Positions 4,533 through 51,609 of a DNA stretch of 64,000 nucleotides are shown in pieces. The position numbers and the translations under genes were made by a program. Positions within the stretch are counted from its first letter, which is position 1. Each line of letters begins with the position of its first letter. The stretch comes from a virus. The stretch covers positions 31,468-95,467 of IMG/VR virus record IMGVR_UViG_3300042516_001671. One strand, given 5' to 3'. The notes beneath the pieces are model-generated. The model saw only the letters and a program-made list of their open reading frames with translations. It was not told the DNA's origin and ran no database searches.

Positions 4533-4533
4533 T

Positions 4534-6093
4534 ATGAAGTTTGGTTCTGTTTGCAGCGGTATTGAAGCCGCCAGCGTGGCATGGCACTTGTTGGGCTGGC
4601 ATGCCTCTTGGTTTAGCGAGATCGAGCCGTTCCCGTCGGCGGTGCTGGCGCATCACTACCCGGGCGCGCCCAACTTGGGGGACATGACGACGCTGCCTGA
4701 TCGCATTCTGTCGGGTGAGGTTGAGGCGCCTGACCTGTTCTGTGGGGGCACGCCGTGTCAGGCGTTCAGTGTGGCCGGCCTGCGCCGGTCGCTGGATGAT
4801 GCCCGGGGCAACCTTTCTCTTATCTTCTGCGAGATCGCCGATGCAATTGACCATGTTCGACTTGCTGGAGGAGAGCCTGCCAGCATCGTCTTCTGGGAGA
4901 ACGTGCCCGGAGTCCTCTCAACCAAGGACAACGCCTTCGGGTGCCTCCTCGCACGTCTATGCGGGGGTGATGAGCCACTGCATGCGCCCGACGGCTGGCC
5001 GGATGCGGGTTGCGTTTCTGGACCCACGAGAACAGCGGCGTGGCGCGTCTTGGATGCCCAATACTTCGGCTTGGCCCAACGACGCCGCCGCGTGTTCGTT
5101 GTCGCGAGTGCTAGAGACGGGTTCGATCCCGCCCAGGTTCTTCTTGAGTTCGAAGGCGTGCGCCGGGATTCTGCGCCGCGCCGAGAAGCGGGGGAAGGAG
5201 TTGCCCGAGGCGCTGCGCCGAGCTTTGGAATCCGTAGCGCGAACACCAGCAGCAACGGATGGGGAATCCAGCGAGAACTGACGCACACACTGGACACGGC
5301 GTCGCCTCAGATCGTGGCGCAAGCCTTTGGTGGCGGGCAGAACTGCGCTCAGACTGATGTGAGTACAACGCTGAGTGCCCATCCTGGTGGGTCAACGCTG
5401 GACTTCCAGACGGAGACGTTTGTCGCTCACACCCTGCGCGGCGAAGGCTTCGACGCCAGCGAGGACGGCACTGGGCGGGGGACGCCGCTGGTGCCGGTGG
5501 CGTTCAGCATCATGCCCATGAACAGCGGCAAGGACTACAAGGCCCGAGAGGTCGATGTGGCGCAACCGCTGATGGCTGCAGGCCCCTTTGGCGGGAATCA
5601 GGGTGGTGATTTCATTGCGCAGCCGGTGGAGCCGGTGCCTATGATCAATATGCAAGGCAGCAAAGGCAATGCAGTCGCGCAAGCTGACGGCCCGAGCTTC
5701 ACGCTCAACGCCATGCACGGCCACGATATGCACGCTGTAGCGGTGCCGGTGGCGATGCGCGAGTCTGGCCAGGGCTACTGGATGCAGGACGATATTGCCG
5801 GAACGATAGATGCCAACATGGGCATGAGCGGACACGCCAATCGGCCTGCCGTCATCAAGCAGCAAGCCATGCAAGTCCGCCGCCTCACGCCCGTTGAGTG
5901 CGAGCGGCTGCAAGGCTTCCCAGACGGCTACACCGCCATCCCCTGGCGCGGCAAGCCCGCCAGCGAGTGCCCTGACGGCCCGCGCTACAAGGCCCTGGGC
6001 AACTCTTGGGCCGTGCCGGTGGTGCGGTGGATTGGAAGACGAATTGATGATCTGTTGAAGCAAAACCTTATTGCGCGTCTATCATCTTCTTGA
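4534..6093 (+). CDS. C5 cytosine DNA methyltransferase with long variable region
   Basis: Motif I FGSVCSGIEA, IV GGTPCQAFS, VI WENVPG, VIII QRRRRVF, IX RRLTPVECERLQGFP, X GNSWAVPV; ATG at 4534. Confidence 0.93.
   Translation: MKFGSVCSGIEAASVAWHLLGWHASWFSEIEPFPSAVLAHHYPGAPNLGDMTTLPDRILSGEVEAPDLFCGGTPCQAFSVAGLRRSLDDARGNLSLIFCEIADAIDHVRLAGGEPASIVFWENVPGVLSTKDNAFGCLLARLCGGDEPLHAPDGWPDAGCVSGPTRTAAWRVLDAQYFGLAQRRRRVFVVASARDGFDPAQVLLEFEGVRRDSAPRREAGEGVARGAAPSFGIRSANTSSNGWGIQRELTHTLDTASPQIVAQAFGGGQNCAQTDVSTTLSAHPGGSTLDFQTETFVAHTLRGEGFDASEDGTGRGTPLVPVAFSIMPMNSGKDYKAREVDVAQPLMAAGPFGGNQGGDFIAQPVEPVPMINMQGSKGNAVAQADGPSFTLNAMHGHDMHAVAVPVAMRESGQGYWMQDDIAGTIDANMGMSGHANRPAVIKQQAMQVRRLTPVECERLQGFPDGYTAIPWRGKPASECPDGPRYKALGNSWAVPVVRWIGRRIDDLLKQNLIARLSSS
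4841..5281 (+). CDS. Nested alternate-frame ORF resembling the M.EcoHK31I beta polypeptide
   Basis: +1 frame inside the MTase; CSLSRVLETGSIPPRFFLSSKACAGILRRAEKRGKELPEALRRAL. Confidence 0.7.
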   Translation: MQLTMFDLLEESLPASSSGRTCPESSQPRTTPSGASSHVYAGVMSHCMRPTAGRMRVAFLDPREQRRGASWMPNTSAWPNDAAACSLSRVLETGSIPPRFFLSSKACAGILRRAEKRGKELPEALRRALESVARTPAATDGESSEN

Positions 6094-12000: not shown

Positions 12001-13963
12001 AGCCTTGCTTTCCCGGAGCCCGCGCCAGAAGACCTCTTGCGTCGGCATCTGCTTCTGGGATTCCTGCATTTTCAAAGTAGGCGACATAGTCCTTGACCTT
12101 CCCCTGTTGGTCCCGAATGTTCAACTCGGCATCCAGCATCGCTGCCTGTTTGGCATCGAAACCAGTAGCCTCTTCATGGATCTGGGCAGGGATGGTTTGT
12201 TCTCCACTGCGCTGGGCAAGATCCAACCTATGCCGCCCGGAGATCACCTCCATGCGGCCATCGTTTCGCTTCCAGACCTGGATGGGCGCGACACCGCGCC
12301 GGTCAAACGTGCCGCCCAGGGCCTCAACAACACCCTTGGCATCAGCATCCGACTTGAACTGAGGAACGTCTTTCGACAGCATCAACTCAGCAAGGGGCAA
12401 CTCAATGACGGGATAGCCAGCGACCGCGTGCTGCTCTGACGCTTGCTCGGCCTTCGCCTCATCCGCCGCGGCTTGCTCTTCTTCTTTGGTCTCAGCCTGG
12501 GCCGGCTTGGTCTCGGTGGGCTTGGCCTGCTCAGGGATCTCGGTGGCTGGCTTCTCTGCCGTTTCAACGGGAGTGAGCGGCAGCGTTGTCGGCGCAGCGC
12601 CTTCTGCAGGCTGTGTAGCCGTTTGTGTAACGAGATCGGGCGGGACAGTCTTCTCTCGGGGAACCCGCTGCGCCAGGATGGATTGAAGCGTGGATGCCCG
12701 CTGCTCCGGCGGCAGGTTCATGGCATACGCCCTCACCTGATCCAGAGTGCCGACTGATCCATCGGGAAGGCGGAAGACATCCTCTCCCTCCGGGGCCGTT
12801 GAAACAACAGGCTCAGTGGGGGCGGCGGGCGGCGTCACCGGGGCAAGAGGCTGTTCTGCACGCCGAGCGGCGTCGATCTCCCGGCTCATCCTACGGGCGA
12901 AAGCAGAGTCGGACTCACCCTCTTGTTGACCCGGCAAACGCTCCACACCAGTGCGAGGAACAGCAAGTCCACCACCCAGGATGGCCCCGGCAGCACCTTC
13001 CATTGCGCCAGCACCAAAGACATTCCTGAACAGAGGAACATCAAAGCCTTCACTCCTCAAGGCTATGTTCTGGGCAAGTTGAGACTGTCCAGCTTGTGCG
13101 AACTCAGGAGCGCCTTCTTGAAGAGCGCCAAGACCGACGCGGGACAGCAGGCCCCTCTCGGCATCTCGAAGAGCTTGCTGCTCTGCAACATCCTTGACAG
13201 CACCTCTGCTCAGCATGGACGTCAGAGGACGTTCAATGCCCATACCGCCAGCAATTGCCCCCAACCCACCGGCAGCAACCATGGACGGAAGATTGGAACT
13301 TGCATAGGACTGAGCCTCTAGAGCCTTGGCCCGAGCGATCTCATCGGAGGCGCCCTTCTCCTTGTAAGCCTGCTCGACAGCCTCGTAGATGGAGCCCTTG
13401 ACCTCACCAACCCCCATGGCCGCGCCGACAGCAGGCATGGCAACAGCACCGGCACGGGCCACACCAAGAGCAGCCCCAACAGGGCCAGAAGCAAGACCAG
13501 CAATGATTACCGGCGCGGTAGACCCAAGAGCCTGGGCCAGCGTATCTACAGGGGCGGTGGCTAGAGCCCGAAGACCAGCACCAACCTGAGCAAGGACACC
13601 CTTGTCTTCTGCCTCCTTGAGGATCTCTGCAACCCTTCTCTGGTCATTCTTTGCCTGAGAAGACAGAAGATCTGCCAGCCAAGTATCGGCAGACTTGAGT
13701 GCCTCTGATGCCGAAGATCCCGCCCCGAAGAGGTCGGCCAGCATCCTGATGCCACCAACACCGCCCCGGACAACCTGAAGGGGAACATCGAGGATCTGCC
13801 GAAGAACGCCGCTCTGTTCTGGCTGAGGGGCCGGAGGAGCAGTGATGGCCTGTCGTCCAACTTGAGATTGGACATATTGAATGATCTGGTCTTGTGTTGC
13901 TCCCTCCGGGGCAGTAACACGATACCGATTGCCATCAGGAGCAGTGACTTCGTAAGTCGGCAT
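6068..13963 (-). CDS. Large polyvalent (probably injected) protein: ParB-like, HExxH peptidase-like, GP88-like, ART-like and LPD38-like domains
   Basis: 2631 aa; VISGRHRL, RHEAIH...EEAIADAF, CPQSARCEGLC/RLNVTSD/FYDYTK, VVDDDGRPLVVYRG...GIYT...GYDG...EIVAFNPTQIKSAIGN, KIPIPFEIGVLFKVIPER. Confidence 0.88.
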   Translation of the reverse strand: MPTYEVTAPDGNRYRVTAPEGATQDQIIQYVQSQVGRQAITAPPAPQPEQSGVLRQILDVPLQVVRGGVGGIRMLADLFGAGSSASEALKSADTWLADLLSSQAKNDQRRVAEILKEAEDKGVLAQVGAGLRALATAPVDTLAQALGSTAPVIIAGLASGPVGAALGVARAGAVAMPAVGAAMGVGEVKGSIYEAVEQAYKEKGASDEIARAKALEAQSYASSNLPSMVAAGGLGAIAGGMGIERPLTSMLSRGAVKDVAEQQALRDAERGLLSRVGLGALQEGAPEFAQAGQSQLAQNIALRSEGFDVPLFRNVFGAGAMEGAAGAILGGGLAVPRTGVERLPGQQEGESDSAFARRMSREIDAARRAEQPLAPVTPPAAPTEPVVSTAPEGEDVFRLPDGSVGTLDQVRAYAMNLPPEQRASTLQSILAQRVPREKTVPPDLVTQTATQPAEGAAPTTLPLTPVETAEKPATEIPEQAKPTETKPAQAETKEEEQAAADEAKAEQASEQHAVAGYPVIELPLAELMLSKDVPQFKSDADAKGVVEALGGTFDRRGVAPIQVWKRNDGRMEVISGRHRLDLAQRSGEQTIPAQIHEEATGFDAKQAAMLDAELNIRDQQGKVKDYVAYFENAGIPEADADARGLLARAPGKQGFAIATKGSPELVAAHRADVIPDAGAAAIANAAPGDSRLQAVGIKAIQEGKSPLAAVNIIKAVQEISKGRPALEGGDLFGFDDSAMKEAEEMAKIATLKQNQIAQRLAAISGASRRPEIAKKEGIDIKDPEALKKREKELRQQKASWDNWSSSPELVQEIRKEMEPAEKPEEKPSVREAEPKELPKDVEAKIDALGKALQRILTRYGLKDVGLRLVADMKAEGEYASKVLSLALDATDPVVALRHEAIHAMKELGFFSPAQWKSLERQAKEKWVDQYLKKKNVNRQPLQEGQMSRYDAYMKFYGGDEEAMLEEAIADAFADFSATKAPAGMLQALLKKIQNFFQAIKEAFGAALDAERIFKKAERGELRAGPIEPDSWKDTAQEEKDAEKYEEQNGILPYTSAGQIEAPVETPKLSIKAPYGEKELAKGKENHPVLNVPLNANGTVTLYFPTSNLSAREVAKTKRLKATSPTSNRIYLTNESNPAAVRTRAGNIDQGPIEANVMVQVPPEMLQFDMEHSDGRKDFFIQLAEGNAFAEKMKMTKLFTLYKPRSEAIAKTTTIGDIGKGLESAISAYKQLSPADQRAKLAQARQVLKDEHNVGTLLGENGKLQKTRLNEYQLPEDIQNSVASLGLGLASAQKINERNLSTCPQSARCEGLCLGETSGQNQLYGGDGPFRAGPRLSQYLKTEALVMHPEEFGIVLYDEIKKFESWAKSDKGFEVITEENGEKSRVKKQVYTPAIRLNVTSDFPPKMLKPFIEGFPGVRFYDYTKLATPGPIADNHHLTYSSDGAAQVVEGKTVGVGSNWDAMIKRLNNGFNVAMAFTSKRDMPDFVLDEKTGDKFQVWNGDNYDARFLDPRPGQKGNLFNKGMIIGLTNKDRTGRPEDAALRHDGFFVDYDRERDGDTVVIRDQEKIKAGKKIIPIAKPSLRDTVNVDGTERPTTSSTNKPIYPTEEGTKNFWRWFKDSAVVDDDGRPLVVYRGVDTDYGTTARVSKEGALGAGIYTTPSASFASYYAEGESPNVMPLYVSLQKPLLLKHKGNEDPMIMALVQLGMKQDKAEAMVEKAYEEKGYIGKQVMNRALSQGYDGLMQYRDGKLTEIVAFNPTQIKSAIGNVGKFDPVDPSIKASLRDTTDPVTRARVDQITTPREEKSFIKRITEAIAPKSASSFRAAFLDRYNRLSEYDKELVRLMGGAPLLADASSHGAALMSDLSAGVLAGAMGVHDGVGGIPVYVNGHTKIVNNNNTVKGPIAIFAPLAKYNDPFIYQKYQTWAAINRGIRLYGQGRETGIITPADRATAAQILKDHPEFKDIHDEWIKFNNGLVKYLKDTGVLSEEAAKEFVKYSDYIPFYRQVEGEETVGPQIFASLSGVRAPKKLKESELKIGEFLETVVRNVQYSIEAGMKNVAAQRAVNTAVLIGQANRLNYASSAPNVIKVLENGLTSYYATKDPLFVEAMKSLNLGDLPFIGLLAGPANLLRNLVTKDPAFMLANMMRDSMSAWVSSGVKMTPMVDTLTNFTKALRGQNPEYAALLNSGVIGGYDYSQGVEISAQRFDRALRKEAGVYTPAEQLARPFVSLWDALEKGTTASDAATRMEVYKKTLAETGNEAEALFRAVEVMNFNRKGNNPMVRVLTAAVPFLNARMQGLDVLYRAAFGRGTEANAKEIQKSFFIRGMTIAALSTMYWMLASEDDEWKRQEQETRDNYWILGDVKIPIPFEIGVLFKVIPERILEYSFGDDTGKDFLKSMTRQLTSTLSFNPIPQTALPLIESVTNYSFFTGRPIVSQGLEDVNPAYQIAPGTSRIGELIGGATKDLPTALQLSPVKIDEMIRGYTGTIGGYMMDLFDAIYDMNTDAPKAAKRFEQMPVIRRFAVDPLARGQVTAYYELKNSVDEAVRTANLLERNMKPQEWGEFMQENMGLLATKDFVLDLEKSMKQYREMKNFVRASTMDAEGKKDIIANITELENNLASNIQEIKKMIDAQ
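6070..6088 (+). repeat. 19-bp direct repeat, right copy
   Basis: Identical to 4512..4530. Confidence 0.95.
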
Positions 13964-28030: not shown

Positions 28031-31000
28031 TCAAGTTTGAATCTGAACCCAGCCAGGGTTTTGAAAATCGTTGATGTCGGTCCAGTTTGGAACCTGCGTC
28101 GTCACCACGTTCTGCCAGCCGGGGCTCTGCGTTGAGTTCACTTCGACCCAGCCCGGAGCCTGCGCGTTCTGGACATTCTGCCAGTTCGGACTCTGGCTGT
28201 CATCTATTGGGTTCCAGAGGTAGCCGCCGACCACAAGGTCAGCAATCGTCCCGGAAGCACTGAAGGAGACGTTGAAGATCGACCCGGCTGCATCAACAGC
28301 ATCAAGACCCGAGGCAAGCTCACTGAGCGAGACGTTGAAGATTGACGCCGCTACAGAAGGCGTGTCCAAGACCGAGGCCGTTTCGCTGACCGAGGAGACA
28401 AAGATCACCAGGGCACTAAGCGCATCCGTGCCTGTTGCAAGCTCTGAGACCGCCGTGGCAAAGATCATCTGCGCGGCCAGCGCGTCGGCTGCTGTGGCCG
28501 TGTCAGAGAAGGACGCTGGGAGTACCAAGGAGGCCGCAGGAGCGTCTGAAAGCGTTGCAGCATCACTCAGGGACACGCCGAAGGTTGAAGCGGCCACAGC
28601 GGGCGTATCCTGGCCCGTTGCAAGCTCAGAGACCGACGGATTAAAGATGGATGCGGCCACCGCGAACGCATCTAGGCCGCTCGCAAGCTCGGACACTGCC
28701 GTGGCAAATACCATTTGAGCGGATAGCGCATCTGAGCCCGTTGCCGTGTCGGAGAAGGCTACCGGGAAGATCGACGCGGCGGACAGCGCGTCGGAGCCCG
28801 TGGCGGTGTCGGAGAAGGATGGGTTAAACGTTGATGCGGCAACCGCCGGCACATCAGAGGCTGTGACGGTGTCGGAGAACAGCCCCTGCATTACAAGGAC
28901 GGCTGAAGCTGTGTCGGCCCCCGTAGCCGATTCAAAAACCGCTGCTGGGGCCGTCAGCAAAGCGACAGCGGTGTCTTGGCCGGCAGCGAGTTCGCTGACA
29001 AGAGCCCCGAAGGTAGAGGCCGCAACAGCAACCGCATCTGAGCCCGTGGACGTTTCGGCTATGGCAGCACTAAAGACAGCGATTGCAGCAAGCGCGTCTG
29101 CGCCCGTGGCAGATTCAAAAATGTCTCTCGTGTAAATCAGGCTTCCGGCAATGCTGTCTGACGCTGTGACGGTGTCAGAGAAATCACAGCTATACAGCAG
29201 CCCGCCCAAAATGGTATCCGAGGCAGTGGCGGTATCGGAAACAGATGCGTTTAACGTGAGCGTGGTGGCAGCGGCATCCGAGCCTGTTGCTGTGTCAGAG
29301 AAAGAGACATTGAATGTTGTACCGCCCGGGGCGGCAAAGATCCAGCCCAGCGAGCCGTTGTTGGTTGAGTTCGCCCCGGCGTACCATGTGCTGTCAAGGT
29401 TATAGGCACGAACCCCAGTGATAGTCAGATAGTCAACGCTGGCAGCCTGCCCGCCGCCCGTGAAGACCAGCGTTCCAGGAGAGGAAGCTGATGTTCCTTG
29501 GACGGTGAGGATGTTGCCAGCAGTGCCAGAGGCAGTCCACGATGTTGTAATGCGCTGGGTGGTGGTGCCAATGTTAATGGTGTTGGCACCGGCGGCAGTG
29601 CTGCTGATAATCTTGAAGGTGTTGTTGCCACTGATGGTGAGCGTGCCGTTGCCGCCTTGGTTCAGGGTGATGTTGGTGTAGGCTATGTCGCCGCCAGCGA
29701 AGGTCTTGGCAGATGCTGAGGTGAGGCTGATGGTGCCGGTGCCGGTGACGGTGAGGTTGGTGGGGGTGGCTGTGAATACAGCGCCAGAACCAGCAAAAGT
29801 CCAAGTACCAGAACCAAAAGCAAGGGTTCTTATATTCTGAGAAGTAGAATCAAAATTTGAACCGCTTGTTGTGGTGAAGTTATATGTGTTAGCGTCTAGT
29901 GTCCCAGCAGAAAGTGTCAGATTAGCTCCGGTTGAAGTGACAAATGCATCTTGCAAAGTAACCGATCCGCTTGGGCTGTTAATTGTAAATCCCTGTGTGA
30001 AAGTCCTGCCGGCATTTGTAATAGTCTGACCACCGCGCCCAGCAAACGTAATCGTTCCCGTACCAGTCAGCGTCGTCCCTGTACCGTTGACCCAGTTTCC
30101 ATAAATAGCAGGCGTCGTAGACCCTGTCGCCAGCGTCATCGTATTCGTCGTCCTAGCCGACATGTCGATGGTGCCGATGTTGTAGGACTGGTTGATGGTG
30201 ACAGTGGCGCCGCTGTTCAGCCCTGTGGCTTCAAAGAAGCAGGTGTCCTGCGCCAATGGGAAGTTGTTTACAGCAGGTGCATCACCACTGTTGAGCGCCC
30301 AGCCTGTCGCAGACCAATTGCCGCCAGCAGCAAGGTTCCAATACTTGTGGGCAGCGGCTGTAAACGTGATGCCGCTGTTGCCCTTGCAGTCGCCAATGCG
30401 CGTACCGGAGGCTGGCGCAGCAGCACCAGCGATGGTGATGTCGCGGAAGTCAACGTCGGTCATTGACAAGGCGTTAGCCGTAATGGTGCGGGTGGTGCCG
30501 ATGGTGTCGCTGCGGCAGAAGTGCCGCATGGTGGCGTTGGTGCCTGCGGAGAAGGTGAGTGTGCCTGTGACGGTTTGGTTGGCGGATAAAATAACAGGTC
30601 TGCACCCGCTAGCAGTTAACCCAGAAAAAGACAGGTTGTTAAAACTGTTTGTGCCGTTAATAGTTCTGTCAACTGGATTGGTTTGAGTAAAACTAACGTT
30701 GTAAAAGGTCTGATTGTTGCCGGAAAAGTTGGGGCCAATTGCAGATATATTTATTTGCGAAGTTCCTGCCGTGACGGTGAGATTGGCTCGGCTCGTTTCG
30801 GTTGTACCAAAATTGATTGGCGTAGACCCAGATAGAGTAGCCGTCCCTGCACCAAAATCAATTGTTCTGGAATTTGCGCTACTAGAACTTATTGACAACC
30901 CTGTATAGTTGTAATTTGCAAAACTGAACGTTCCGTTGGTAACGGTTATTCCATTTGATGCTCCTGTATCCAATGCAGAACCCAAGCTCCACGAGCAATC

Positions 31001-34000
31001 TACGCCATTGACGGTAATGGAAGATGCCAGCGCAACCCCGTTCGTCGTAAACGTCAGCCCGGTGGAATTGCTCGACAGCGTCATCGCCCCCGTATACGTC
31101 CGAGTCAGCCCCGTCGCGGGCAGCGTCACATTGCCATGGATACCGTCCATTGCCGTAGAACCCGCCAACGTCACATTCCCCGACGCCGGTCCAGCAATGG
31201 TCAACGCCTTCATCCTGATGCCGCCTGTAACAGCGTTCACTGTGGCTGTGTAGGCTGTCCCATTGCTGCCTGAATCAAACACAACATCATCGTGGCTGCG
31301 CGGCACAGAAGCTCCGCTGCCTGTTCCAGATGTCGTAGACCAGCGTGCTGTGTCGCTCCAGTTGCCTGTGCCACCAACCCAATAGCGCGTGCTGTCAGCA
31401 GGCTTGGCTGTGCGATAGACAGGCGCTGCGGCCGTGCCGGTGCTGTTGGCACCAGCGTAGAACTCACCAGGGCTTGTGGCAGCAAAGCCAATGCTTCCCA
31501 TAGCAAGGTAGTCAATGCCGCTGGTGCAGGCTCCTGCGAGGATGTGGGAGGTTCCAGTGCCGGTCAGAGTGACGACGTTTCCAGCAGTGCCAGTCACTGT
31601 CCACTTGCCGAAAATCTGGATGGTAGAGCCTAGAGCAATGGTGTGCGCTACGGTCTTAGTGCTGGCGAGTTCGGTGAATTGATTGTTGCCGGTTATGGTT
31701 GTAGTTGATATGCCGGTTGCACCGCCAATAGTGAGTTTGTTATAGGAAAAGCTCTCGCCTGCAAACTGCCTGGAATTTGTAGACGTACTAGAGAGAACAA
31801 TATCTGCTGTATCTTTATAAAAAGTTATTCCTGAAATTCTCCACACATTAGTCTCTTGGCTGGAATAGGTGAGTGTCCAAGTACCTGAACCCATTCTCAC
31901 AACCAGACTCGTGTCTCCACTTGCCTGAAAGGCTCCAATCGTTACATTGTAAGTTTTTGCGTTAAATTGTCCGTATAAAACCCTAAAAAGCACGCCACTA
32001 GTGAATGCGTCTTCTAACTCTATGTTCGCCCTTATAGAGTTAATTTGTACTGGAATCGGTATAGAGACTCCGTTGGTTTTAATATAGTTTGTTGCGTCGT
32101 ATGAGGAAATGTTTATAGTATTTGAATTACTGGTAATTGTTACACCTGAACCAAAGCGTAAATTTTTGAAGATATTAAATGTGATACTTACCGTTAGTGT
32201 CATAGCGGTTGTTCTAGAACCCATTTCTAGTGTTCCCAACCTAAACACGGCACTTGTAGAAACAGTGCCTGCTGAACCGGCGTCATCAAATACGGCAGTG
32301 TCTTGTGCTAATGGAAAATTATTTACATTCGGCGTACCACCACTGGAGGTTGCCCATCCCGTAGAGAAGAAAGTCTGTGTGCCGGCCAGATTCCAGTAAA
32401 GTGTTTTCGAAGCCGGGAAAACAATACCAGCGTTGTTTCCGCAATCCCCCGCGTTTGATGGGGCGGTATTGATGGCGGCTCCGGTCAGGTTAATCCCTTC
32501 AAAATCACAGTTATCGGCAAGCAGTGTATTGACAGACAGGTTGCACCTGTTGTTTGTAATATGTGGATTAACGTTTCTTATGGCATATCGGTTTCGAAGA
32601 CTTGTACCAACAACCTGAAACGTCCCTGTAATGGTGGCGTCCCCAGTAAAGTTTATCAGGTTTGTTCCGTCAACTCCCGGTGCCCTTAGTGTAAGGTTGG
32701 CAATTGTGCCGACATTTGTAAACGCGACAGATCTATTAGAAACCGAGGACGCGGCCGCGTTCGCTGTTATGTTATAAAACGTGAGCGGCAGACCACAGGT
32801 TATAGACAAGTTGGGGTCTTGCGGCAATACAATATTTGACGTTCCGGCATTAAATGTCAAGTTTGTGCTTGTATTAAAGGAGATGCCAACAGTCCCTGAT
32901 AAGGTAAAGGTGCTCGACCCAAGCGTGATCGTCCTGACGTTGCTGTTGTTGGACGACAACGAACTAGCAGTGACGTTGTAGTTCTTGGTGTCGAACGTGC
33001 CGTTGGTGACGGTGAGTGCGCCTGTGCCCGTATTTAAGGCGTCGGCTAATTCGACCGATCCACCATAGGTATCGATGATCAAATCCTGAGCAAACGCTTT
33101 TCCGGCGCTTGTAATCGTCTGAGTGTTCCGTCCGGAAAAGGTCAGAGAACTTGAATACGTCCTTGTAACGCTACTTCCAAACTTCCAATCCCCGTAAACC
33201 GTATATGCCGTTGATCCCGCCAGCGTCATCGCATTTGTCCGCGTAGACATATCAATGGTGCCGAGAGACGGAAGAGCCGAGTCCAGCGTCACCGTAGCCG
33301 ACGTATTCAGACCAGTGTTACCAATGACAGCCGTGTCCTGAGCAAGCGGGAAGTTGTCTGTACTGACCCCGCCACCGGACGACGCAGCCCAAGCGTTTGC
33401 AGACCAGTTTCCACCTGCGGCAAGGTTCCAATAGACGGATTTAGGCGTGTCAAAGGTGATGCCTCTGCATCCCCTGAGGTCGCCTATCCTGGTGCCGCTG
33501 ATGGGCGCTGCTGTGCCGATGACGTAGATGTCTCTGAAGTCTGCGTCGGTCAGGCTTGGGGCGCTGTTGATGGTGAGGGTTTGGGCGATGCCATAGAGGT
33601 CGCCACGGAACCAGACGCGGCGGTTGCCTGCGGTGCCTGTGGTGGATAGGGTGCCGTTGATGGTTTGACGGGATCTGAAAGATATGGTGCGAACGCCAGC
33701 AGATGCCGGCCCAGTGACGGTTAAGTTATTGAAAATGTTAGCACCAAGAATTACACTTACTATTGCGCCTGTTCCTGTAAATGAAAAATTATTAAATGTT
33801 AACCCTGTTTGAATAACAATGTCACAAAAAGCTGAGGACGTTGTACATACAATAACTGAAGTCCCGGCATTAAATGTAAGATTTGTTTGTACTGATATAC
33901 TTATTGGAACAGAGCCTTGAAGTGTTACTGTGCTTCCATTCAAACTTATTGTTCTTGTATTTGCATTGCTGGACGAAAGTGCTCCTGCCGTAACAGAATA

Positions 34001-34453
34001 ATTGCTTGCTGATGTCGTGAACGTTCCCTGCGTGACGGTCAGCGTGTTGCTGCCAATATTCAGCGCATCCCCAAGCGTCACAGTGATGCCGCTGCCGCTA
34101 ATGGTCACAGAACCAAGCGTCTTGCCTGCGCTGGTCAGCGTGCCTGTAGCGTTGAACGTGGTAGTACCGGCATAGGTCAGCGTCATGCCAGCGACAAGCG
34201 TCAGAGAGCCTGAGATCGTCAGCGCAGGCGTGGCCGTCCCAGCCAGCGTGGCGGTATAGCCGGTACAGTTGATGGACTTGGCAACGCGGGAACCGGAGAT
34301 GGTGCAGGTTAACGATGTGCCGTCAAAGAACACATCGTCTGCCGCCGTAGGCACAGCAGCACCACCGGCCCCACCTACCGTAGCCGCCCACTTGGTGCCT
34401 GCTGTACCGTCCCAAACGTCGGTTGCAAGGCCGCGCCAGAAGCGATCTGCCAC
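28031..34453 (-). CDS. Giant repeat-rich tail fibre / adhesin-like virion protein
   Basis: 2140 aa, Thr/Gly/Ser-rich; five YW...W...P...D modules; C-terminal SDTATGSD-type repeats. Confidence 0.85.
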   Translation of the reverse strand: MADRFWRGLATDVWDGTAGTKWAATVGGAGGAAVPTAADDVFFDGTSLTCTISGSRVAKSINCTGYTATLAGTATPALTISGSLTLVAGMTLTYAGTTTFNATGTLTSAGKTLGSVTISGSGITVTLGDALNIGSNTLTVTQGTFTTSASNYSVTAGALSSSNANTRTISLNGSTVTLQGSVPISISVQTNLTFNAGTSVIVCTTSSAFCDIVIQTGLTFNNFSFTGTGAIVSVILGANIFNNLTVTGPASAGVRTISFRSRQTINGTLSTTGTAGNRRVWFRGDLYGIAQTLTINSAPSLTDADFRDIYVIGTAAPISGTRIGDLRGCRGITFDTPKSVYWNLAAGGNWSANAWAASSGGGVSTDNFPLAQDTAVIGNTGLNTSATVTLDSALPSLGTIDMSTRTNAMTLAGSTAYTVYGDWKFGSSVTRTYSSSLTFSGRNTQTITSAGKAFAQDLIIDTYGGSVELADALNTGTGALTVTNGTFDTKNYNVTASSLSSNNSNVRTITLGSSTFTLSGTVGISFNTSTNLTFNAGTSNIVLPQDPNLSITCGLPLTFYNITANAAASSVSNRSVAFTNVGTIANLTLRAPGVDGTNLINFTGDATITGTFQVVGTSLRNRYAIRNVNPHITNNRCNLSVNTLLADNCDFEGINLTGAAINTAPSNAGDCGNNAGIVFPASKTLYWNLAGTQTFFSTGWATSSGGTPNVNNFPLAQDTAVFDDAGSAGTVSTSAVFRLGTLEMGSRTTAMTLTVSITFNIFKNLRFGSGVTITSNSNTINISSYDATNYIKTNGVSIPIPVQINSIRANIELEDAFTSGVLFRVLYGQFNAKTYNVTIGAFQASGDTSLVVRMGSGTWTLTYSSQETNVWRISGITFYKDTADIVLSSTSTNSRQFAGESFSYNKLTIGGATGISTTTITGNNQFTELASTKTVAHTIALGSTIQIFGKWTVTGTAGNVVTLTGTGTSHILAGACTSGIDYLAMGSIGFAATSPGEFYAGANSTGTAAAPVYRTAKPADSTRYWVGGTGNWSDTARWSTTSGTGSGASVPRSHDDVVFDSGSNGTAYTATVNAVTGGIRMKALTIAGPASGNVTLAGSTAMDGIHGNVTLPATGLTRTYTGAMTLSSNSTGLTFTTNGVALASSITVNGVDCSWSLGSALDTGASNGITVTNGTFSFANYNYTGLSISSSSANSRTIDFGAGTATLSGSTPINFGTTETSRANLTVTAGTSQINISAIGPNFSGNNQTFYNVSFTQTNPVDRTINGTNSFNNLSFSGLTASGCRPVILSANQTVTGTLTFSAGTNATMRHFCRSDTIGTTRTITANALSMTDVDFRDITIAGAAAPASGTRIGDCKGNSGITFTAAAHKYWNLAAGGNWSATGWALNSGDAPAVNNFPLAQDTCFFEATGLNSGATVTINQSYNIGTIDMSARTTNTMTLATGSTTPAIYGNWVNGTGTTLTGTGTITFAGRGGQTITNAGRTFTQGFTINSPSGSVTLQDAFVTSTGANLTLSAGTLDANTYNFTTTSGSNFDSTSQNIRTLAFGSGTWTFAGSGAVFTATPTNLTVTGTGTISLTSASAKTFAGGDIAYTNITLNQGGNGTLTISGNNTFKIISSTAAGANTINIGTTTQRITTSWTASGTAGNILTVQGTSASSPGTLVFTGGGQAASVDYLTITGVRAYNLDSTWYAGANSTNNGSLGWIFAAPGGTTFNVSFSDTATGSDAAATTLTLNASVSDTATASDTILGGLLYSCDFSDTVTASDSIAGSLIYTRDIFESATGADALAAIAVFSAAIAETSTGSDAVAVAASTFGALVSELAAGQDTAVALLTAPAAVFESATGADTASAVLVMQGLFSDTVTASDVPAVAASTFNPSFSDTATGSDALSAASIFPVAFSDTATGSDALSAQMVFATAVSELASGLDAFAVAASIFNPSVSELATGQDTPAVAASTFGVSLSDAATLSDAPAASLVLPASFSDTATAADALAAQMIFATAVSELATGTDALSALVIFVSSVSETASVLDTPSVAASIFNVSLSELASGLDAVDAAGSIFNVSFSASGTIADLVVGGYLWNPIDDSQSPNWQNVQNAQAPGWVEVNSTQSPGWQNVVTTQVPNWTDINDFQNPGWVQIQT

Positions 34454-43299: not shown

Positions 43300-45630
43300 T
43301 TAGCCCGCTTTGAAGTTGTAGACCTTCGCATGCGGCATCAGGGTTTCCAGCATGCGGCGGATTTCGCTGCGGTTGCTCTGGTAGCGTTCCAGCGTGTCTA
43401 GCGAACAGAGGATGTGCCGCTTCTGCGCCAGTTCGTTCGTCTTGACCTTCCCCAGATCAAGCCAGCCCGCATGCCCAGCCGCCACATACAGGCTCTGAAT
43501 GTTGATCTTGTGATCCTGCATGCCCTGCTGAAGCTCGTCTACCACCGGCTGCCACGGTCCCATGATCGCACCGGGCCGGAACACGCCGACCCTGTTGCGC
43601 ATCGCCTCGGCCAATAGAGCCTCACCTGCAGACAGGCCGCCCTCCATCATCACGGTTTTGGCGTCCGTCACTGGCGGCCGATCCCCCGGCGAGAAATTCG
43701 ATACGTCCCTTGCGCGTAACCAGTGCGCAACATGATCTAGTCCGCCGCCCTGATACCACTGCCAGAGGGCGCGAGCCTCCTGCTGCGACAATATGCCGGC
43801 TTCTGACCACAACACCATCCATCTGCGGTCATCTGCCGATAACGACAGGGATACTCGCTCGTTGCTGAAACCCAGCACCGACAGTCTGTTGACTGCCGGG
43901 TAGGGGTGGCGGCCTTTCTCGTTGACGCTGAAGGTCTCCGGCGGCGCGGCCAGCAAGGGCTTCAGTTTGTTTTCCAGCGCCCGCCTGTCCTGCAATTGCG
44001 GCTCGCGCAGTTCGTTTAGGACGAGGACTTCGCTGAGAACGTAATAATTGAATGCTGACTGTATTTCCTCGGTCGTGACGGTTTTCACATTCTGGCCTGT
44101 CGGCCCGCCGATTGCGTGCAGGAATGGCATCCAAAGAGTATCCTTGCCGCTACCCTGCCGGCCTCCGTGCAGGATGCCGTGATTGATTTTCACGCCGGGA
44201 TGCTGGACTTTGAACGCCATCCAGTCCAGGCAGTGTCGGCGCTCCTCTGCGTCCGGTATCATGCGCTCTACGTGCCCCAACCACGGGCCTACGTCGCCGG
44301 GCACGCCCTGCGGCCTGCCGTCGCGCCAAGTGTTTCCGAATTGCTCTCCGTCGTAGCCCACGAAAAGCCCGTTCCCGGGCGCGTAGATCATGCCGGCCAG
44401 CGTGCGCGCGCCCATCGCAATCCGGTTCTCGTCGTAGCTGGTGCTGGCCGTCACGCGGGCATGCAGTCCGTTTGCGCCAGCGTGGATACTGTGCATTTTG
44501 TGGTGCCGGAATGCCGCGTCGAATGACTTGCGCTCCACCAGTTTTCTGCGGTGCAGGTCGAAGAAATCCGCGCTACTGAGCAGAAACGCAAACCGCTTGT
44601 ACCAATCGGGCGGCTCCAGCGTGCCGATCTCGTCGCTATCTGGCGGCGTCGGGTCCGCTGCCGGCTGCGCCTCGGGCTTCGCTGCGGGGGTCGGCTCAGG
44701 CGCTGGCGCCTGCAGCCATAGCGACACTCTCTGAGCGATCCAGGCCCGCGCGTCGGACCACCGCGCCCACCCGCTATCGGCGCAGTCCCAGCCGTCAGGC
44801 TGGCCTGTGGGGTCGATGATTTTGACCTCTGCCGCCAGCGGCTGCAGGATGGCCGCCAAGCGCTGCATAGCCTCGATGCCGGCAGTGTCAGCGTCAGGCC
44901 ACAGGAGGATTTTCCGGCCCCGGAGGGTCTGCCAGTTCGCTCTGCTGAGAGCCTGCGCGCCACCGGGCCAGGTCACGGCGACGTAAGGCGAGCCCGCCAA
45001 TGCTGCCGCCGCGTCTGCGGCTTTCTCGCCCTCGACCACCAGCACCGGATCGTCGGGGCGGGCCTCCAGTTCCTGCAGCCTGTAAAGCGGGCGCGGGACC
45101 GGCCACTGGCCCATGCCCCAGCCGTCGTGCGCGAAAGTCCAGGGCACGATCTGCTTGCGGCTGTCGGGCGGGTCGTATCTGGCGACGTACCCGAGCACGT
45201 CGCCGTCGCCGTTGAAGTACGTCCAGCGCGCTGACGGCGCGCCGTGGATCGGGTGAATGCAGTCGCAGTCCGCCGCCTCGCTGGGCACCGGCACGATGAC
45301 CTGCCGCTGCGGTTTCGCTGGGCGCGGCTTGGCAGGCACGCTGCTGGCGGGCGCGTCGTCGCTGAGTTCGCGGTACGCCTCGCCCATGGTGATCTCGTGG
45401 ATGGCAGCGTACAGGCTGATGAGATCCCCGCCGCGTTCGCTGGTGGCGAAGTCGGCCCACCGGCCCGACAGTAGGTTTACGCCGCATGAGTCGCCCTCGC
45501 CGCCTGCTAGATCACCGCACACCCACTCATGGCCCCGCCTGCGCCCGCCTGCGAGCCACTGCGGGACGAGGGTTTCCGCGCTGATAAGCAGGCGCTGTGC
45601 GAGGGCTGAGAAGTCGAGTTTCGTTGTCAT
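43300..45630 (-). CDS. Primase-helicase (Toprim + DUF5906/SF3-like P-loop)
   Basis: VVEGEKAAD, LWPDAD, GWDCAD; Walker A GRQGSGKDT; LVLNE. Confidence 0.88.
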   Translation of the reverse strand: MTTKLDFSALAQRLLISAETLVPQWLAGGRRRGHEWVCGDLAGGEGDSCGVNLLSGRWADFATSERGGDLISLYAAIHEITMGEAYRELSDDAPASSVPAKPRPAKPQRQVIVPVPSEAADCDCIHPIHGAPSARWTYFNGDGDVLGYVARYDPPDSRKQIVPWTFAHDGWGMGQWPVPRPLYRLQELEARPDDPVLVVEGEKAADAAAALAGSPYVAVTWPGGAQALSRANWQTLRGRKILLWPDADTAGIEAMQRLAAILQPLAAEVKIIDPTGQPDGWDCADSGWARWSDARAWIAQRVSLWLQAPAPEPTPAAKPEAQPAADPTPPDSDEIGTLEPPDWYKRFAFLLSSADFFDLHRRKLVERKSFDAAFRHHKMHSIHAGANGLHARVTASTSYDENRIAMGARTLAGMIYAPGNGLFVGYDGEQFGNTWRDGRPQGVPGDVGPWLGHVERMIPDAEERRHCLDWMAFKVQHPGVKINHGILHGGRQGSGKDTLWMPFLHAIGGPTGQNVKTVTTEEIQSAFNYYVLSEVLVLNELREPQLQDRRALENKLKPLLAAPPETFSVNEKGRHPYPAVNRLSVLGFSNERVSLSLSADDRRWMVLWSEAGILSQQEARALWQWYQGGGLDHVAHWLRARDVSNFSPGDRPPVTDAKTVMMEGGLSAGEALLAEAMRNRVGVFRPGAIMGPWQPVVDELQQGMQDHKINIQSLYVAAGHAGWLDLGKVKTNELAQKRHILCSLDTLERYQSNRSEIRRMLETLMPHAKVYNFKAG

Positions 45631-46223
45631 GCTGTCCCCCACTGATCAGCCATCGCTGCGGCTATGCCGGCGTATGTTGTGCTGCGGATCTTCCAGCGAT
45701 CCGGGCTCGGGCCGAGGCGGTTCTGTCCGCTGTCGGTCTGGTTGCCCCAGCGCTTCCGTCCGTTGACGATGCGCGGTTCTACGATCTGCGTCGGCCGCAA
45801 TGGCGGCAAATTCTGCAACCACAGGCAGGTTTTCTTCGACGCATCGTGCCCGAACATCCACGGCTGGATGATCTGCTCAGGCTTTTTAATCCATGTGCTG
45901 ATCATGCTCACCGGGTTCTCGATGGCAATGCGCGGGATTGGCGCGTCCATCAATATGTGAACAAACATCAACGCGTTGTGGGTCAGTTGCTCATCGCGCA
46001 ACCCGCGCCGCGTCCAGTGCATGCCACTGACACTCAGGTACGTGCAGGGCGGGTGCGCGATCATCAGATCCCAGCCGTCGTCCAGCACATCGCACACGTC
46101 GCCTTGATAATGCGGCCCCGGCGCATCTGTCGGCAGCAAATCACACGACATCGCATCGTGCCCGCGTGCGCGGAAAGCATCGCGCACGGTGCCGCTGTAT
46201 TCGCAGGCTACAAGTACTCTCAT
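45627..46223 (-). CDS. Short C5-methyltransferase-like protein
   Basis: MRVLVACEYSG, IAHPPCTYL, IENP; start 46223. Confidence 0.8.
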   Translation of the reverse strand: MRVLVACEYSGTVRDAFRARGHDAMSCDLLPTDAPGPHYQGDVCDVLDDGWDLMIAHPPCTYLSVSGMHWTRRGLRDEQLTHNALMFVHILMDAPIPRIAIENPVSMISTWIKKPEQIIQPWMFGHDASKKTCLWLQNLPPLRPTQIVEPRIVNGRKRWGNQTDSGQNRLGPSPDRWKIRSTTYAGIAAAMADQWGTA

Positions 46224-48245: not shown

Positions 48246-48452
48246 ATGAAGACCACCGCAATCAGCACCCTGACCGCTGCCGACGTCGCATTCGTGCTGG
48301 AGGTGCTGCAGCAGGCGCAAGACATGTCGCCCACTGCCGACGCTTACGACATCGGCATTCTTCGCGCCCGCGCCTTCGCCGCCGCCTCTAGGCTGCGCAT
48401 CCACAGCGGCATTGAGAGTGTCATTGTGCCAATCAAGGAGGAAGCATCGTGA
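48246..48452 (+). CDS. Phage hypothetical protein
   Basis: GGAG RBS; ATG at 48246. Confidence 0.6.
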   Translation: MKTTAISTLTAADVAFVLEVLQQAQDMSPTADAYDIGILRARAFAAASRLRIHSGIESVIVPIKEEAS

Positions 48453-49084
48453 TCCTCGAAACCGCAGACCAACGTTCCGACGACTGGTACGCCGCCCGCT
48501 GCGGCAAGGCCACCGCCAGCAGGTTCAAGGACGTCATGGCCCGCCTCAAGAACGGCGCACCCGCCGCCGACCGCCAGCGTTACCTGACGGAACTGGTGGT
48601 CGAGCGCCTCACCGGCCAGCCGGTGCCGGCATACGAGAACGCCGCCATGCGCTGGGGCACGGAGCAGGAAGCCGCTGCCCGGGCCGCATACGAGCGGCGC
48701 ACGGGCGTGGCGGTGGAGGAGACGGGCTTCGTCGCCCACGACACCCTGTACGCAGGCTGCAGCCCGGACGGCCTGGTGGACTGGGACGGGCTGATCGAGA
48801 TCAAGTGCCCGTTCAACAGCGCCGTCCACATCGACACGCTGCTCAACGGCATGCCGGCAGAGCACGTGCCGCAGGTGCAGGGTCAGATGTGGATTACCGG
48901 CCGGCAGTGGTGCGATTTCGTGAGCTTCGATCCCCGCATGCCTGAGCCGCTGCAACTGCACGTCCAGCGCATCAACCGTGACCCGGCGTATGTTGCCGAC
49001 CTCGAGCGCCAGGTCACGGAGTTCCTTGCCGAGGTCGGCGCACAAGTCGAGGCGCTGCGGCGCCTTGCGGAAAGCAGGAAATGA
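48449..49084 (+). CDS. YqaJ / lambda-exonuclease family protein
   Basis: QRSDDWYAARCG..TAS, CSPDGL...IEIKCP, QVQGQMW. Confidence 0.92.
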   Translation: MILETADQRSDDWYAARCGKATASRFKDVMARLKNGAPAADRQRYLTELVVERLTGQPVPAYENAAMRWGTEQEAAARAAYERRTGVAVEETGFVAHDTLYAGCSPDGLVDWDGLIEIKCPFNSAVHIDTLLNGMPAEHVPQVQGQMWITGRQWCDFVSFDPRMPEPLQLHVQRINRDPAYVADLERQVTEFLAEVGAQVEALRRLAESRK

Positions 49085-49373: not shown

Positions 49374-50099
49374 ATGACAGCACTTGTCCCCGTAGACCAG
49401 ATCGAGCGCATGGCGCTCGCGGTCGCCAAATCCGGCCTGTTCGGCGTCAAGACGCCCGACCAAGCGATGGCCCTCATGCTGGTGGCGCAGGCGGAAGGCA
49501 TGCACCCCGCGATTGCCGCCCGCGATTACCACGTTATCAATGGCCGCCCAACGCTGCGCGCCGACGCCATGCTGGCCCGTTTCCAGCAGGCCGGCGGCAA
49601 AGTGGAGTGGGGCGAGTACACCGACCGCAAGGTCGTCGGCACGTTCACCCACCCGCAGGGCGGCAGTGTCCGCATTGAGTGGACGACGGACATGGCCGTC
49701 AGCGCCGGCCTGACGCGCAACCCGACGTGGAAGTCCTACCCCCGGCAGATGCTGCGGGCGCGGTGCATCAGCGAAGGCATCCGCACCATCTACCCCGGCG
49801 TGGCCATCGGCACCTACACGCCAGAGGAGGCCGAGGACATGGCCCCGCGCCCAGCCCGCGACATGGGCGCTGTCGAAGAGGTGGCCCCGCCGCCGCCGCC
49901 GGCAGTGGACGTGGAAGCTCTGGTGCGCGACATTGACGGCGCCGCCACGCTGGAGTTTCTGGAACTGCTGCGCCCGCAGATGCGCCAGGTGCCGAAAGGC
50001 CCCGACCGCGACCGCGTGGTGGCCGCAGTGCAGCGCCGTGCAGAGGAGATCCGCGCTGAGCAGGCGCCCGCGCCCGAGGCGGAAGGGGGTGCGTTGTGA
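49374..50099 (+). CDS. Single-strand annealing recombinase (RecT-like)
   Basis: HVINGRP...WKSYPRQML.AR...YTPEE; near the exonuclease. Confidence 0.78.
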   Translation: MTALVPVDQIERMALAVAKSGLFGVKTPDQAMALMLVAQAEGMHPAIAARDYHVINGRPTLRADAMLARFQQAGGKVEWGEYTDRKVVGTFTHPQGGSVRIEWTTDMAVSAGLTRNPTWKSYPRQMLRARCISEGIRTIYPGVAIGTYTPEEAEDMAPRPARDMGAVEEVAPPPPPAVDVEALVRDIDGAATLEFLELLRPQMRQVPKGPDRDRVVAAVQRRAEEIRAEQAPAPEAEGGAL

Positions 50100-50311
50100 G
50101 TGCCGCCAGCCAACCCCCCGATCAGCACCTGATCACCCCCGCCCAATTGGGCATCCGCTGGGGCCTGAGCCTGCACACGCTCAGTCAGTGGCGGGCCAAT
50201 AACAGCGGGCCGGCTTACCTGCGCCTCGGTGACGGCGAGCGGCCGCGCATCAGGTATCGGCTGGTGGACGTGCAGGAATACGAGCGCCGGCAACTGGAGA
50301 ACCGGCAGTAA
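50096..50311 (+). CDS. Excisionase/AlpA-like HTH protein
   Basis: ITPAQLGIRWGLSLHTLSQWR...GPAY...IRY. Confidence 0.8.
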   Translation: MSAASQPPDQHLITPAQLGIRWGLSLHTLSQWRANNSGPAYLRLGDGERPRIRYRLVDVQEYERRQLENRQ

Positions 50312-50316
50312 TACGT

Positions 50317-50590
50317 AATACACGGCACGGCGAGGCAGGGCACGGCACGGCCAGGCGAGGCAGGGCATGGCACGGCTCGGCAACGCACGGCATGGCAGGG
50401 CGAGGTACATGGCACGGCGTGGCGTGGCCAGGCATGGCGCAGCCAGGCACGGCGAGGCAAGGTACGCGGCTTGGCAAGGCCCGGCGTGGCGTGGCAAGGC
50501 ACGGCAAGGCAAGGTACATGGCTTGGCAGGGCAAGGCTCGGCAGGGCAAGGCTTGGCGCGGCAAGGCAGGGCAATTTCTGCCCGAATTTG
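50317..50590 (+). repeat. Segmented GGC-NN pentamer array; candidate guide-RNA array
   Basis: 46 pentamers in blocks of 16/10/9/11 (50324-50403, 50411-50460, 50468-50512, 50520-50574), separated by GGTACAT, GGTACGC, GGTACAT; small GGGCA/TGCCC hairpin at the 3' end. Confidence 0.9.
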
Positions 50591-50618: not shown

Positions 50619-51197
50619 ATGAAACTGATCGACATCGAAATTCGCGGCATTCAACCGCTTCTCATGCACCGTTTTGCGGAGGACGCGGAGACGGCCAGCA
50701 GCAGCAAGGCGCGCGGCATCGTGCAGGACAGGGGCACGCCCCGCGAACAGGCCGAGAAGGTTGCCTACCGGCATCCTGACGGCACGTTCTACATCTCGGC
50801 GTTCGCCATTCCCAACGCTATCGGCGCGGCCGGCGCGAGCTACAAGATGCCCGGTTCGCGCAAAAGCATGCGGTTCATTGTGCCCAGCGCAATCCGCATC
50901 TTTGAGCCCACCATCACGGTGATGAACGGCGCAGGCCCTGCCAAGGATTTCGAGGTGGACTCGCGCCCGGTGACGATCCCCGCCACCAAAGGCCGCGTCA
51001 TGCGCCACCGCCCGCGCTTTGACTGCTGGGGCCTGCAGTTCAGCATCGGTGTGGACGACACGTTGATGAAAGTCAGCGACGCGCAGATGCTGCTGGAGCA
51101 GGCCGGCCTGAGCATTGGCATCGGGGATTTTCGTCCTGAGAAGCGCGGCCCGTTTGGCACGTTCCGCGTGACCCGTTTTGAGGAGCTCGCAGAATGA
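50619..51197 (+). CDS. Solitary RAMP/Cas7-like protein (192 aa)
   Basis: GGAG RBS at 50608; N-terminal IEIRGIQPLLMH strand, FYISAFAIPNAI, C-terminal Gly-rich loop AGLSIGIGDFRPEKRGPFGTFRV. Confidence 0.75.
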   Translation: MKLIDIEIRGIQPLLMHRFAEDAETASSSKARGIVQDRGTPREQAEKVAYRHPDGTFYISAFAIPNAIGAAGASYKMPGSRKSMRFIVPSAIRIFEPTITVMNGAGPAKDFEVDSRPVTIPATKGRVMRHRPRFDCWGLQFSIGVDDTLMKVSDAQMLLEQAGLSIGIGDFRPEKRGPFGTFRVTRFEELAE

Positions 51198-51391
51198 GCG
51201 CCGCCCGCGAATTCCTCGCGGGCCTGTTCCGCCCCGCGTCGCCCGAGGTTCTGGCAGCGCGTGAGCTGGACGAGGCCCGCCGGCAGTTGCTGGCCGCAGA
51301 GTCCGCTGCGGAATACGCGGACGCGATGTGCGCTTACCACCGTTCGCGGATTGAGCGGTTGCAGCGGTATTTGAAAGGAGAGCAGGAATGA
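51194..51391 (+). CDS. Phage hypothetical coiled-coil protein
   Basis: ATGA coupled to the RAMP-like gene. Confidence 0.7.
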   Translation: MSAAREFLAGLFRPASPEVLAARELDEARRQLLAAESAAEYADAMCAYHRSRIERLQRYLKGEQE

Positions 51392-51609
51392 AAGACACCG
51401 GAGGACCGGCGTTTCCCGTGAAGACGGCGATGCTCGATTGCACGCAGACCGGCATGACCCTGCGCGACTACTTTGCGGCGAAGGTGATGGAAGGGATTTG
51501 GACAAACAGTGAGATTCTTGCGACTTTGAAACGCGGGCAAGAGTCGAAAGAAATTGCTATGTTAGCCTATGAGCAGGCCGACGCCATGCTGAAAGCGAGG
51601 CAACCATGA
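51388..51609 (+). CDS. Conserved small phage protein (GGPAFP...GMTLRDYFAA...ADAML)
   Basis: Widespread phage motif set. Confidence 0.8.
   Translation: MKDTGGPAFPVKTAMLDCTQTGMTLRDYFAAKVMEGIWTNSEILATLKRGQESKEIAMLAYEQADAMLKARQP

Follow-up and report, generated by a model that had tools for sequence, protein, structure and literature searches.

A candidate four-guide VIPR array beside a Vipr homologue in an uncultured phage with a P22-like portal

The pentamer array and the adjoining Cas7-like gene

The window, by which we mean the whole 64,000-nucleotide stretch of DNA that was analysed (positions 31,468 to 95,467 of IMG/VR virus record IMGVR_UViG_3300042516_001671), belongs to a phage with a P22-like portal, the nearest portal relatives of which are uncultured spring phages. 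Within the early region of this phage, an array of GGCNN pentamers lies downstream of recombination genes and directly upstream of a gene for a small protein of the RAMP type. The locus comprises the following features.

48449-49084: YqaJ exonuclease gene, upstream of the array.
49374-50099: RecT gene, upstream of the array.
50096-50311, + strand: HTH_17 or excisionase-like gene (71 aa), directly 5' of the array, with weak matches.
50317-50323, + strand: degenerate leading junction AATACAC; relatives carry GGTACNN there.
50322-50408, + strand: predicted vrRNA 1, made of AC, 16 repeats (one of them degenerate) and a closing GGTAC.
50384 and 50441, + strand: degenerate repeats CGCAC (block 1) and AGCCA (block 2).
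50404, 50461 and 50513, + strand: internal junctions GGTACAT, GGTACGC and GGTACAT, each consisting of GGTAC and two further nucleotides.
50409-50465, + strand: predicted vrRNA 2, made of AT, 10 repeats (one of them degenerate) and a closing GGTAC.
50466-50517, + strand: predicted vrRNA 3, made of GC, 9 repeats and a closing GGTAC.
50518-50574, + strand: predicted vrRNA 4, made of AT and 11 repeats, closed by the terminal hairpin without a GGTAC.
50569-50583, + strand: terminal stem-loop GGGCA-ATTTC-TGCCC, which ends the array about 35 bases 5' of the vipr start.
50619-51197, + strand: vipr (192 aa), directly downstream of the array; Cas7-like RAMP, phrog_4652 (function unknown).
51194-51609, + strand: two small genes (65 aa and 73 aa) 3' of vipr, the 73-aa one matching phrog_2201.

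The pentamer periodicity of the tract is far beyond chance. Parsed from 50324, the tract (50324-50574) consists of 47 five-base units, 45 of which are GGCNN and two degenerate. The window contains 26 runs of four GGCNN units in succession, all of them within the tract, against an expectation of 0.09 from shuffles. Tandem Repeats Finder returned periods of 5, 10, 15 and 52 on the tract, and the whole 95-kb virus record contains no second GGCNN array elsewhere. The three internal junctions, all of which conform to GGCRRGGCRAGGTACRY, delimit four blocks of 16, 10, 9 and 11 repeats. The hairpin that closes the last block has a counterpart in relatives, which carry a GGGC-AATTTC-GCCC hairpin at the equivalent position; a consensus promoter and terminator scan made no terminator call on it. 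At the opposite end, the window reads TACGT AATACAC GGC where relatives read ..CGT, then GGTACAT or GGTACGT, then GGC, and the last two bases (AC) of AATACAC would be the first dinucleotide of guide 1. The first-pass annotation of this DNA had let the first block begin after a TACAC at 50319, which we find to be the tail of this degenerate leading junction. Its division into four blocks is the same as ours, its strings of NN dinucleotides being identical letter for letter, and the hairpin is also as it had described.

The gene directly 5' of the array matches Pfam HTH_17 weakly (E 0.0045, below the cut-off) and phrog_66, likewise weakly. Of 86 related loci, 18 retain it in this position, all of them in the close clade, and it is possibly a vipr-accessory (vap-like) gene. 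No conserved vap gene was recognisable across the 86 related loci, and the two small genes at 51194-51609 adjoin vipr only in the closest relatives among them. A 115-bp stretch of these small genes (51375-51489) is 92% identical to positions 30966-31078 of the virus record (G000), just upstream of the window. Elsewhere in the window we noted genes for a C-5 cytosine DNA methyltransferase (4507-6093) and a Toprim/DUF5906 primase-like protein (43300-45642), as well as two very long minus-strand open reading frames at 6068-13963 and 28031-34453 (2631 aa and 2140 aa). The G+C content is 54-59% in window positions 1-36000 and 62-66% in 36001-60000, and falls again after 60 kb; in addition, a 476-bp direct repeat (96.8% identical) connects G000 1-476 with 65722-66197, 65.7 kb apart. 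Because of the jump in G+C and this direct repeat, the 95-kb record may be a composite, either of two elements or through an assembly join.

Judged by its homology and its predicted structure, the protein encoded at 50619-51197 is a Vipr with a Cas7/Csm3-like fold. A single-sequence phmmer search matched it to the 'SUSP1 Vipr protein' (PDB 36pp_D) at an E-value of 5.8e-7, and a 41-sequence profile matched the same entry at 6.3e-14, covering 1-183 of the profile's 190 positions. The residues named as contacting GGY in SUSP1 Vipr, H17, R138, D177, W178 and R179 (bioRxiv 10.64898/2026.04.26.720927), correspond here to H17, R131, D170, F171 and R172, respectively, the change of W178 to F171 retaining the aromatic character. 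R131, D170, F171 and R172 never vary among the 41 homologues, at least 90% of which also have H17. An alignment-based AlphaFold model reached a pLDDT of 86 (a single-sequence model, with a pLDDT of 30, was discarded), and its best Foldseek matches in the PDB were Csm3, type VII Cas7 and Cas7-11, at E-values of 1e-4 to 1e-5. By analogy with SUSP1, the Vipr encoded here would bind GGY motifs and present the NN dinucleotides. With an E-value threshold of 1e-5, we collected 1508 homologues of this family.

In VIPR systems, a small ancestral RAMP protein (Vipr), minimal in having an RRM core, a G-loop and a thumb, is paired with vrRNAs in which 9-16 GGY/NN repeats are followed by a 3' tail. One Vipr protomer occupies each repeat and sequesters the GGY, and the NN dinucleotides pair with DNA, skipping every third base; natural targets are competing phages and satellites, where the skip often falls on the wobble position (bioRxiv 10.64898/2026.04.26.720920, 10.64898/2026.04.26.720927 and 10.64898/2026.10.15.759431). 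All four blocks of the window's tract fall within the published range of 9-16 repeats. Because a Vipr gene adjoins it, we read the tract as a VIPR vrRNA array, and we consider it very likely that tract and vipr together form a four-guide array of a phage-encoded VIPR system. The first-pass annotation, which had interpreted the tract as an array of four guide-like units, was essentially right; systems of this kind were already published in 2026, and the locus is a further example.

Targets of the guides

Guide 2 reads AT AC GT GT CA AT GC CA AC GA, followed by AA AC. Searched with one base skipped after each dinucleotide, its units 1-9 matched 102 metagenome contigs exactly, 92 of them in one homologous gene and in one frame, and 112 IMG/VR contigs, all of them in the same Sak4-like gene. 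The matches in this gene lie in frame, with the skipped base at the codon wobble position, and share the peptide context LNALRDDRGM-TVVQIAHTD-IKRFDSPEHD. The first 10 dinucleotides of guide 2 align with ATG ACx GTx GTx CAx ATx GCx CAx ACx GAx, the codons of M-TVVQIAHTD, and the predicted target site at a one-base skip is ATGACCGTGGTGCAGATCGCGCACACCGAC. Among 56 distinct 33-mers from the family matches, all NN positions are fixed and all skip positions are variable. The upstream dinucleotide AT, which lay outside the search pattern, matches as well, giving 10 perfect units and 22/24 matching positions at 203 sites. The match sets in with the dinucleotide that follows GGTAC and fades in the last two repeats ahead of the next GGTAC; the matching AT suggests that a guide runs from the dinucleotide after one GGTAC through its own closing GGTAC. 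Full-length guide 2 (10 units, one-base skip) had no match in IMG/VR because its unit 10 is AA and the target has AT at this place, and the 20-base pattern was not found among the genomes searched (401 sampled from one phylum).

The matched gene encodes an AAA_24 protein (E 4e-54) of the Sak4-like phrog_124, and its nearest cultured relative is only 59% identical. It lies in a module of a temperate phage together with a serine integrase, SSB, a Cas4-type exonuclease, a helicase and a primase. From the sequence match, we predict that guide 2 targets the M-TVVQIAHTD motif of the Sak4-like AAA_24 ATPase in a family of uncultured temperate phages.

We weighed this prediction against coincidence, that is, a chance 18-base gapped match that is multiplied by the abundance of one gene family, with the real targets lying elsewhere. 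Since the matches are homologous, the more than 200 of them count as about one independent event. Guides 1, 3 and 4 and 140 guides of relatives gave nothing above chance at the target-family loci, and the L023 version of guide 2 is one repeat shorter and would be out of register. Against coincidence, the pattern read backwards returned no match at all, and five other 18-base one-skip patterns returned 0-3 matches each, all in AT-rich contigs. Moreover, the AT that nobody had selected for matches too, a 1-in-16 event, and the degenerate repeat AGCCA keeps the matching CA. The target contigs have a GC content of 52-70%, like the window's phage; IMG sample 3300046001 contains both a phage contig with an identical Vipr and a target contig; and no AAA_24 gene was found in the record of the window's phage. 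The chance bound for a family-motif match, which we put at about 0.5% per pattern as a rough upper assumption and not as a computed value, is lowered 16-fold, by estimate, through the unselected AT. Taking both sides together, we regard a coincidental match as unlikely and retain the Sak4-like gene as the predicted target of guide 2.

The large collections were scanned with a one-base skip, and other skips were applied to the window, the related loci and the loci fetched with the skip-1 pattern. With skips of 0-3, we found no self-target in the window for any of the four guides, the same outcome as that of the by-eye inspection reported in the first-pass annotation. No self-target reached 80% of NN positions either: the best sites in the 95-kb record match at 62-72%, equal to shuffled guides. 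The four guides gave nothing above chance against 698 kb of related loci (skips of 0-2), and 129 guides of relatives scored highly against related loci only where the loci had been fetched with the same patterns, which is circular. For guide 1, neither units 1-9 in IMG/VR nor units 2-11 in metagenomes had any match. IMG/VR contained two matches to full guide 3, two to units 1-9 of guide 4 and three to units 6-14 of guide 1; these lie in contigs of 30-41% GC and do not extend beyond the pattern, and we read them as chance.

One further contig, L176 (metagenome contig Ga0233360_1000114; 47% GC, phage-like), carries two guide matches, at 1550-1576 and 10961-10986. One is a 17/18 in-frame one-skip match to guide 3 that scored above 200 of 200 shuffles, the other an exact 18/18 match to units 1-9 of guide 2 that lies outside the frame of the long open reading frame. 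The contig may represent a further target element, or the matches may be coincidental.

Two expectations raised before this analysis can be set beside these results. The idea that recognition with one skipped base would follow codon periodicity and tolerate synonymous mutations agrees with what we found for unit 2, which fits a coding motif in more than 200 contigs with its skip on the wobble position. The idea that the four cores address four targets is supported for guide 2, with its match in the Sak4-like gene; for guides 1, 3 and 4, nothing rose above chance. Database searches with gapped patterns had also been suggested; they were productive for unit 2 at a one-base skip, with no match to the reversed pattern, and remained at chance level for units 1, 3 and 4.

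Related arrays and the junctions between guides

GGYNN arrays are present on the vipr strand in all 86 related loci, either upstream or downstream of vipr, and their in-phase repeat runs peak at 10-13. For the comparison of junctions we used 12 arrays from phages with a Vipr that is 85-100% identical. GGTAC is invariant at all 38 distinct junctions of these arrays, whereas the two bases that follow it vary (AT 15, GT 8, GC 6, TT 4, AG 2, TA 2, AC 1); the two repeats that precede it are mostly GGCAA GGCA(A/T). The arrays are composed of 27 distinct blocks, mostly of 8-15 repeats, which are swapped between them as modules in the manner of CRISPR spacers. The NN dinucleotides differ among related arrays while GGC is retained, and the 5' half of vrRNA 3 is common to the L023 array. 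The first-pass annotation had proposed a fixed heptamer as punctuation. Its GGTAC part holds, being invariant at junctions while the blocks vary, and this conservation lends sequence support to the suggestion of a conserved handle or processing site; the next two bases do not belong to the punctuation and appear to act as the first dinucleotide of the next guide.

The array of L017, the Vipr of which is 100% identical, is the same except for repeat 14 of guide 1 (GGCAT in the window and TGCGA in L017; L017 about 190-205, window 50389-50393), which suggests that the 3' part of this long guide is drifting. In L026 and L035, the arrays upstream of vipr contain stub blocks of four repeats (GGCAC GGCAA GGCAA GGCAT) and two repeats (GGCAA GGCAA), respectively, between GGTAC junctions. 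These stubs look like bare handle repeats that remained after the loss of a guide.

The separators between guides are different in other clades of this Vipr family. L075 and L093 carry GGTTC followed by two nucleotides, a sister variant of GGTAC+NN. In more distant clades the separators are tails of 20-30 nucleotides that are AT-rich or form hairpins: the guides of L058 are separated by a hairpin tail of about 30 nucleotides, GGTTTCTCTGGCGAGAAATTTTTAT, and those of L011, L013 and L014 by tails of about 20 nucleotides of the GGTTTCAA(T/G)TTTC type.

Among cultured phages, records of Mycobacterium and Gordonia phages and of cyanophages gave blastn matches to the array itself. A 3.25-kb query bearing the array matched 27 Mycobacterium and 8 Gordonia phage records, and the Mycobacterium records among the matches listed aligned at the array. 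In Mycobacterium phage Donkeykong (L009, NC_051648.1), gene 48, annotated as 'hypothetical protein', overlies a GGCNN array with 4-base slips (2418-3517) and is probably not a coding sequence; gp49, encoded by the gene that follows, is homologous to Vipr (hhalign probability 97.5%, E 7e-12, GDWRP loop). In cyanophage Cy-LDV1 (L010, BK059895.1; 1817-3420), g34 codes for a homologue of Vipr (hhalign probability 95.8%), and two GGCNN arrays flank g33, which is not Vipr-like, just 5' of an excisionase gene and near bet and exonuclease genes. The 4-base units in the tracts of Donkeykong and Cy-LDV1 rule out a conserved reading frame.

The comparison also bears on the partition into four guides. The array might be a VIPR array and yet form one long vrRNA, or be partitioned in some other way, with GGTAC+2 as register slips that have no role in processing. 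The tails of 20-30 bases in other clades show that a real separator can be far larger than this junction, and the stubs of L035 and L026 show that junctions can stand close together. However, GGTAC remains invariant while the blocks on both sides of it are exchanged as modules, and blocks of 8-15 repeats agree with the published 9-16. The match of guide 2 starts right after one GGTAC and weakens just before the next, and a shift of register by two bases would break a filament with one protomer per five bases. A partition other than the four guides is quite unlikely on this evidence.

A DNA-level element (an origin with iterons, a protein-binding array, a G-quadruplex or an R-loop tract) or an encoded repeat protein would be consistent with a G-skewed tract in an early recombination region with all six frames open, and with the coding sequence annotated in GenBank over the equivalent tract of Donkeykong, but it is very improbable, since the array accompanies a Vipr homologue on the same strand throughout the 86 loci, length differences among related arrays come in multiples of 5 and 7 bases and units of 4 bases occur in other phages, which leaves no conserved frame, the GGY/NN pattern is accounted for by the published biochemistry, and scans for Rfam families and for promoter- or terminator-like sites gave no match. 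The Vipr homology and the non-triplet length variation also led us to reject several further readings that we had considered: a pentapeptide-repeat open reading frame, an array of Chi or primase sites, an array bound by Xis, a TRAP-like RNA-binding site, and a tract that forms R-loops or G-quadruplexes.

Proposed function and comparison with known systems

Following the published VIPR work, the four-guide array would function as follows. The tract would be transcribed from the + strand, probably as the leader of the vipr message, and processed at GGTAC. In the resulting ribonucleoprotein, one Vipr protomer would bind each GGY motif and present the NN dinucleotide, and the dinucleotides would pair with double-stranded DNA, skipping every third base and silencing transcription of the target. 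Each guide would have a dinucleotide without GGY first and GGTAC last, and for this reason neighbouring guides would be two bases out of register. The last two or three repeats (GGCRR GGCRA GGTAC) may constitute a conserved 3' handle that takes the place of a structured tail. Guide 2 would block the replication and recombination operon of a competitor from similar habitats, and would tolerate synonymous variation in it.

Concerning the junctions, we tentatively raise the possibility that GGTAC+NN is the punctuation of a tail-less array, in which a register shift of two bases and two or three handle repeats would suffice, with neither structured tail nor ribozyme. The shift would end one Vipr filament and start the next, and the exposed UAC-NN linker would be trimmed by host RNases. 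If this is true, and if such arrays are distinct from the 'staggered' ones discussed below, they would represent an undescribed vrRNA architecture and processing logic.

The locus would extend VIPR, known from two type II systems of enterobacterial and Pseudomonas phages, to an uncultured P22-like phage of freshwater type, and its compact array with minimal punctuation makes an easy test case for processing rules. In addition, it points to a specific natural target, the invariant M-TVVQIAHTD of a Sak4-like ATPase from a predicted rival family of temperate phages. There, the skipped base absorbs all synonymous variation that we observed, so that 56 sequence variants are matched by one guide; this illustrates, independently and by computation alone, the escape-proof, codon-periodic targeting that has been reported for SUSP1. 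The Vipr family is large, and its homologues adjoin GGCNN tracts in the mycobacteriophage and cyanophage records that we checked, with at least one array, that of Donkeykong, probably misannotated as a gene.

Seven types of VIPR and several array architectures, including 'staggered arrays', have been named, and the characterised type II exemplars come from Escherichia phage SUSP1 and a Pseudomonas fulva prophage (bioRxiv 10.64898/2026.04.26.720920, 10.64898/2026.04.26.720927 and 10.64898/2026.10.15.759431). The locus resembles these systems in having a small Cas7-like Vipr gene beside + strand GGY/NN pentamers, in the 9-16 repeats per guide and in being encoded by a phage. It further shares with them a one-base-skip code that falls on the wobble position, a predicted target in a competing mobile element and the lack of a self-target. 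Its Vipr is only distantly similar to that of SUSP1 (profile E 6e-14) and has F in place of W178. In contrast to type II VIPR, the pseudoknotted 3' tail of about 40 nucleotides is absent here, and the guides abut via GGTAC and two bases. The predicted target also differs, being a Sak4-like recombination ATPase, whereas the exemplars are directed at a satellite recombinase or a lysis-lysogeny regulator.

None of the three VIPR preprints mentions the GGTAC motif. In 'staggered arrays', as the legend of fig. S18 in the same preprint describes them, each vrRNA has 1 nt in common with its neighbour, its end marking where the next begins. In the array described here, ..GG-T-AC and C-AT-GG.., taken in the YNNGG register, likewise have exactly one C in common, and going by that legend the GGTAC-joined array may be an instance of the 'staggered' architecture.

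Finally, the system proposed here resembles Class 1 CRISPR-Cas in the RAMP filament on a guide RNA, in the periodic flipping of bases and in the modular guides that are shuffled among relatives. It differs from CRISPR in its neighbours, which are YqaJ, RecT, the HTH gene, Vipr and small open reading frames, with no cas1, cas2 or other cas genes nearby. Instead of direct repeats of 23-50 nt and contiguous spacers, the array has a repeat unit of 5 nt, and scaffold and guide information alternate in steps of 5 nt on a phage-borne element.
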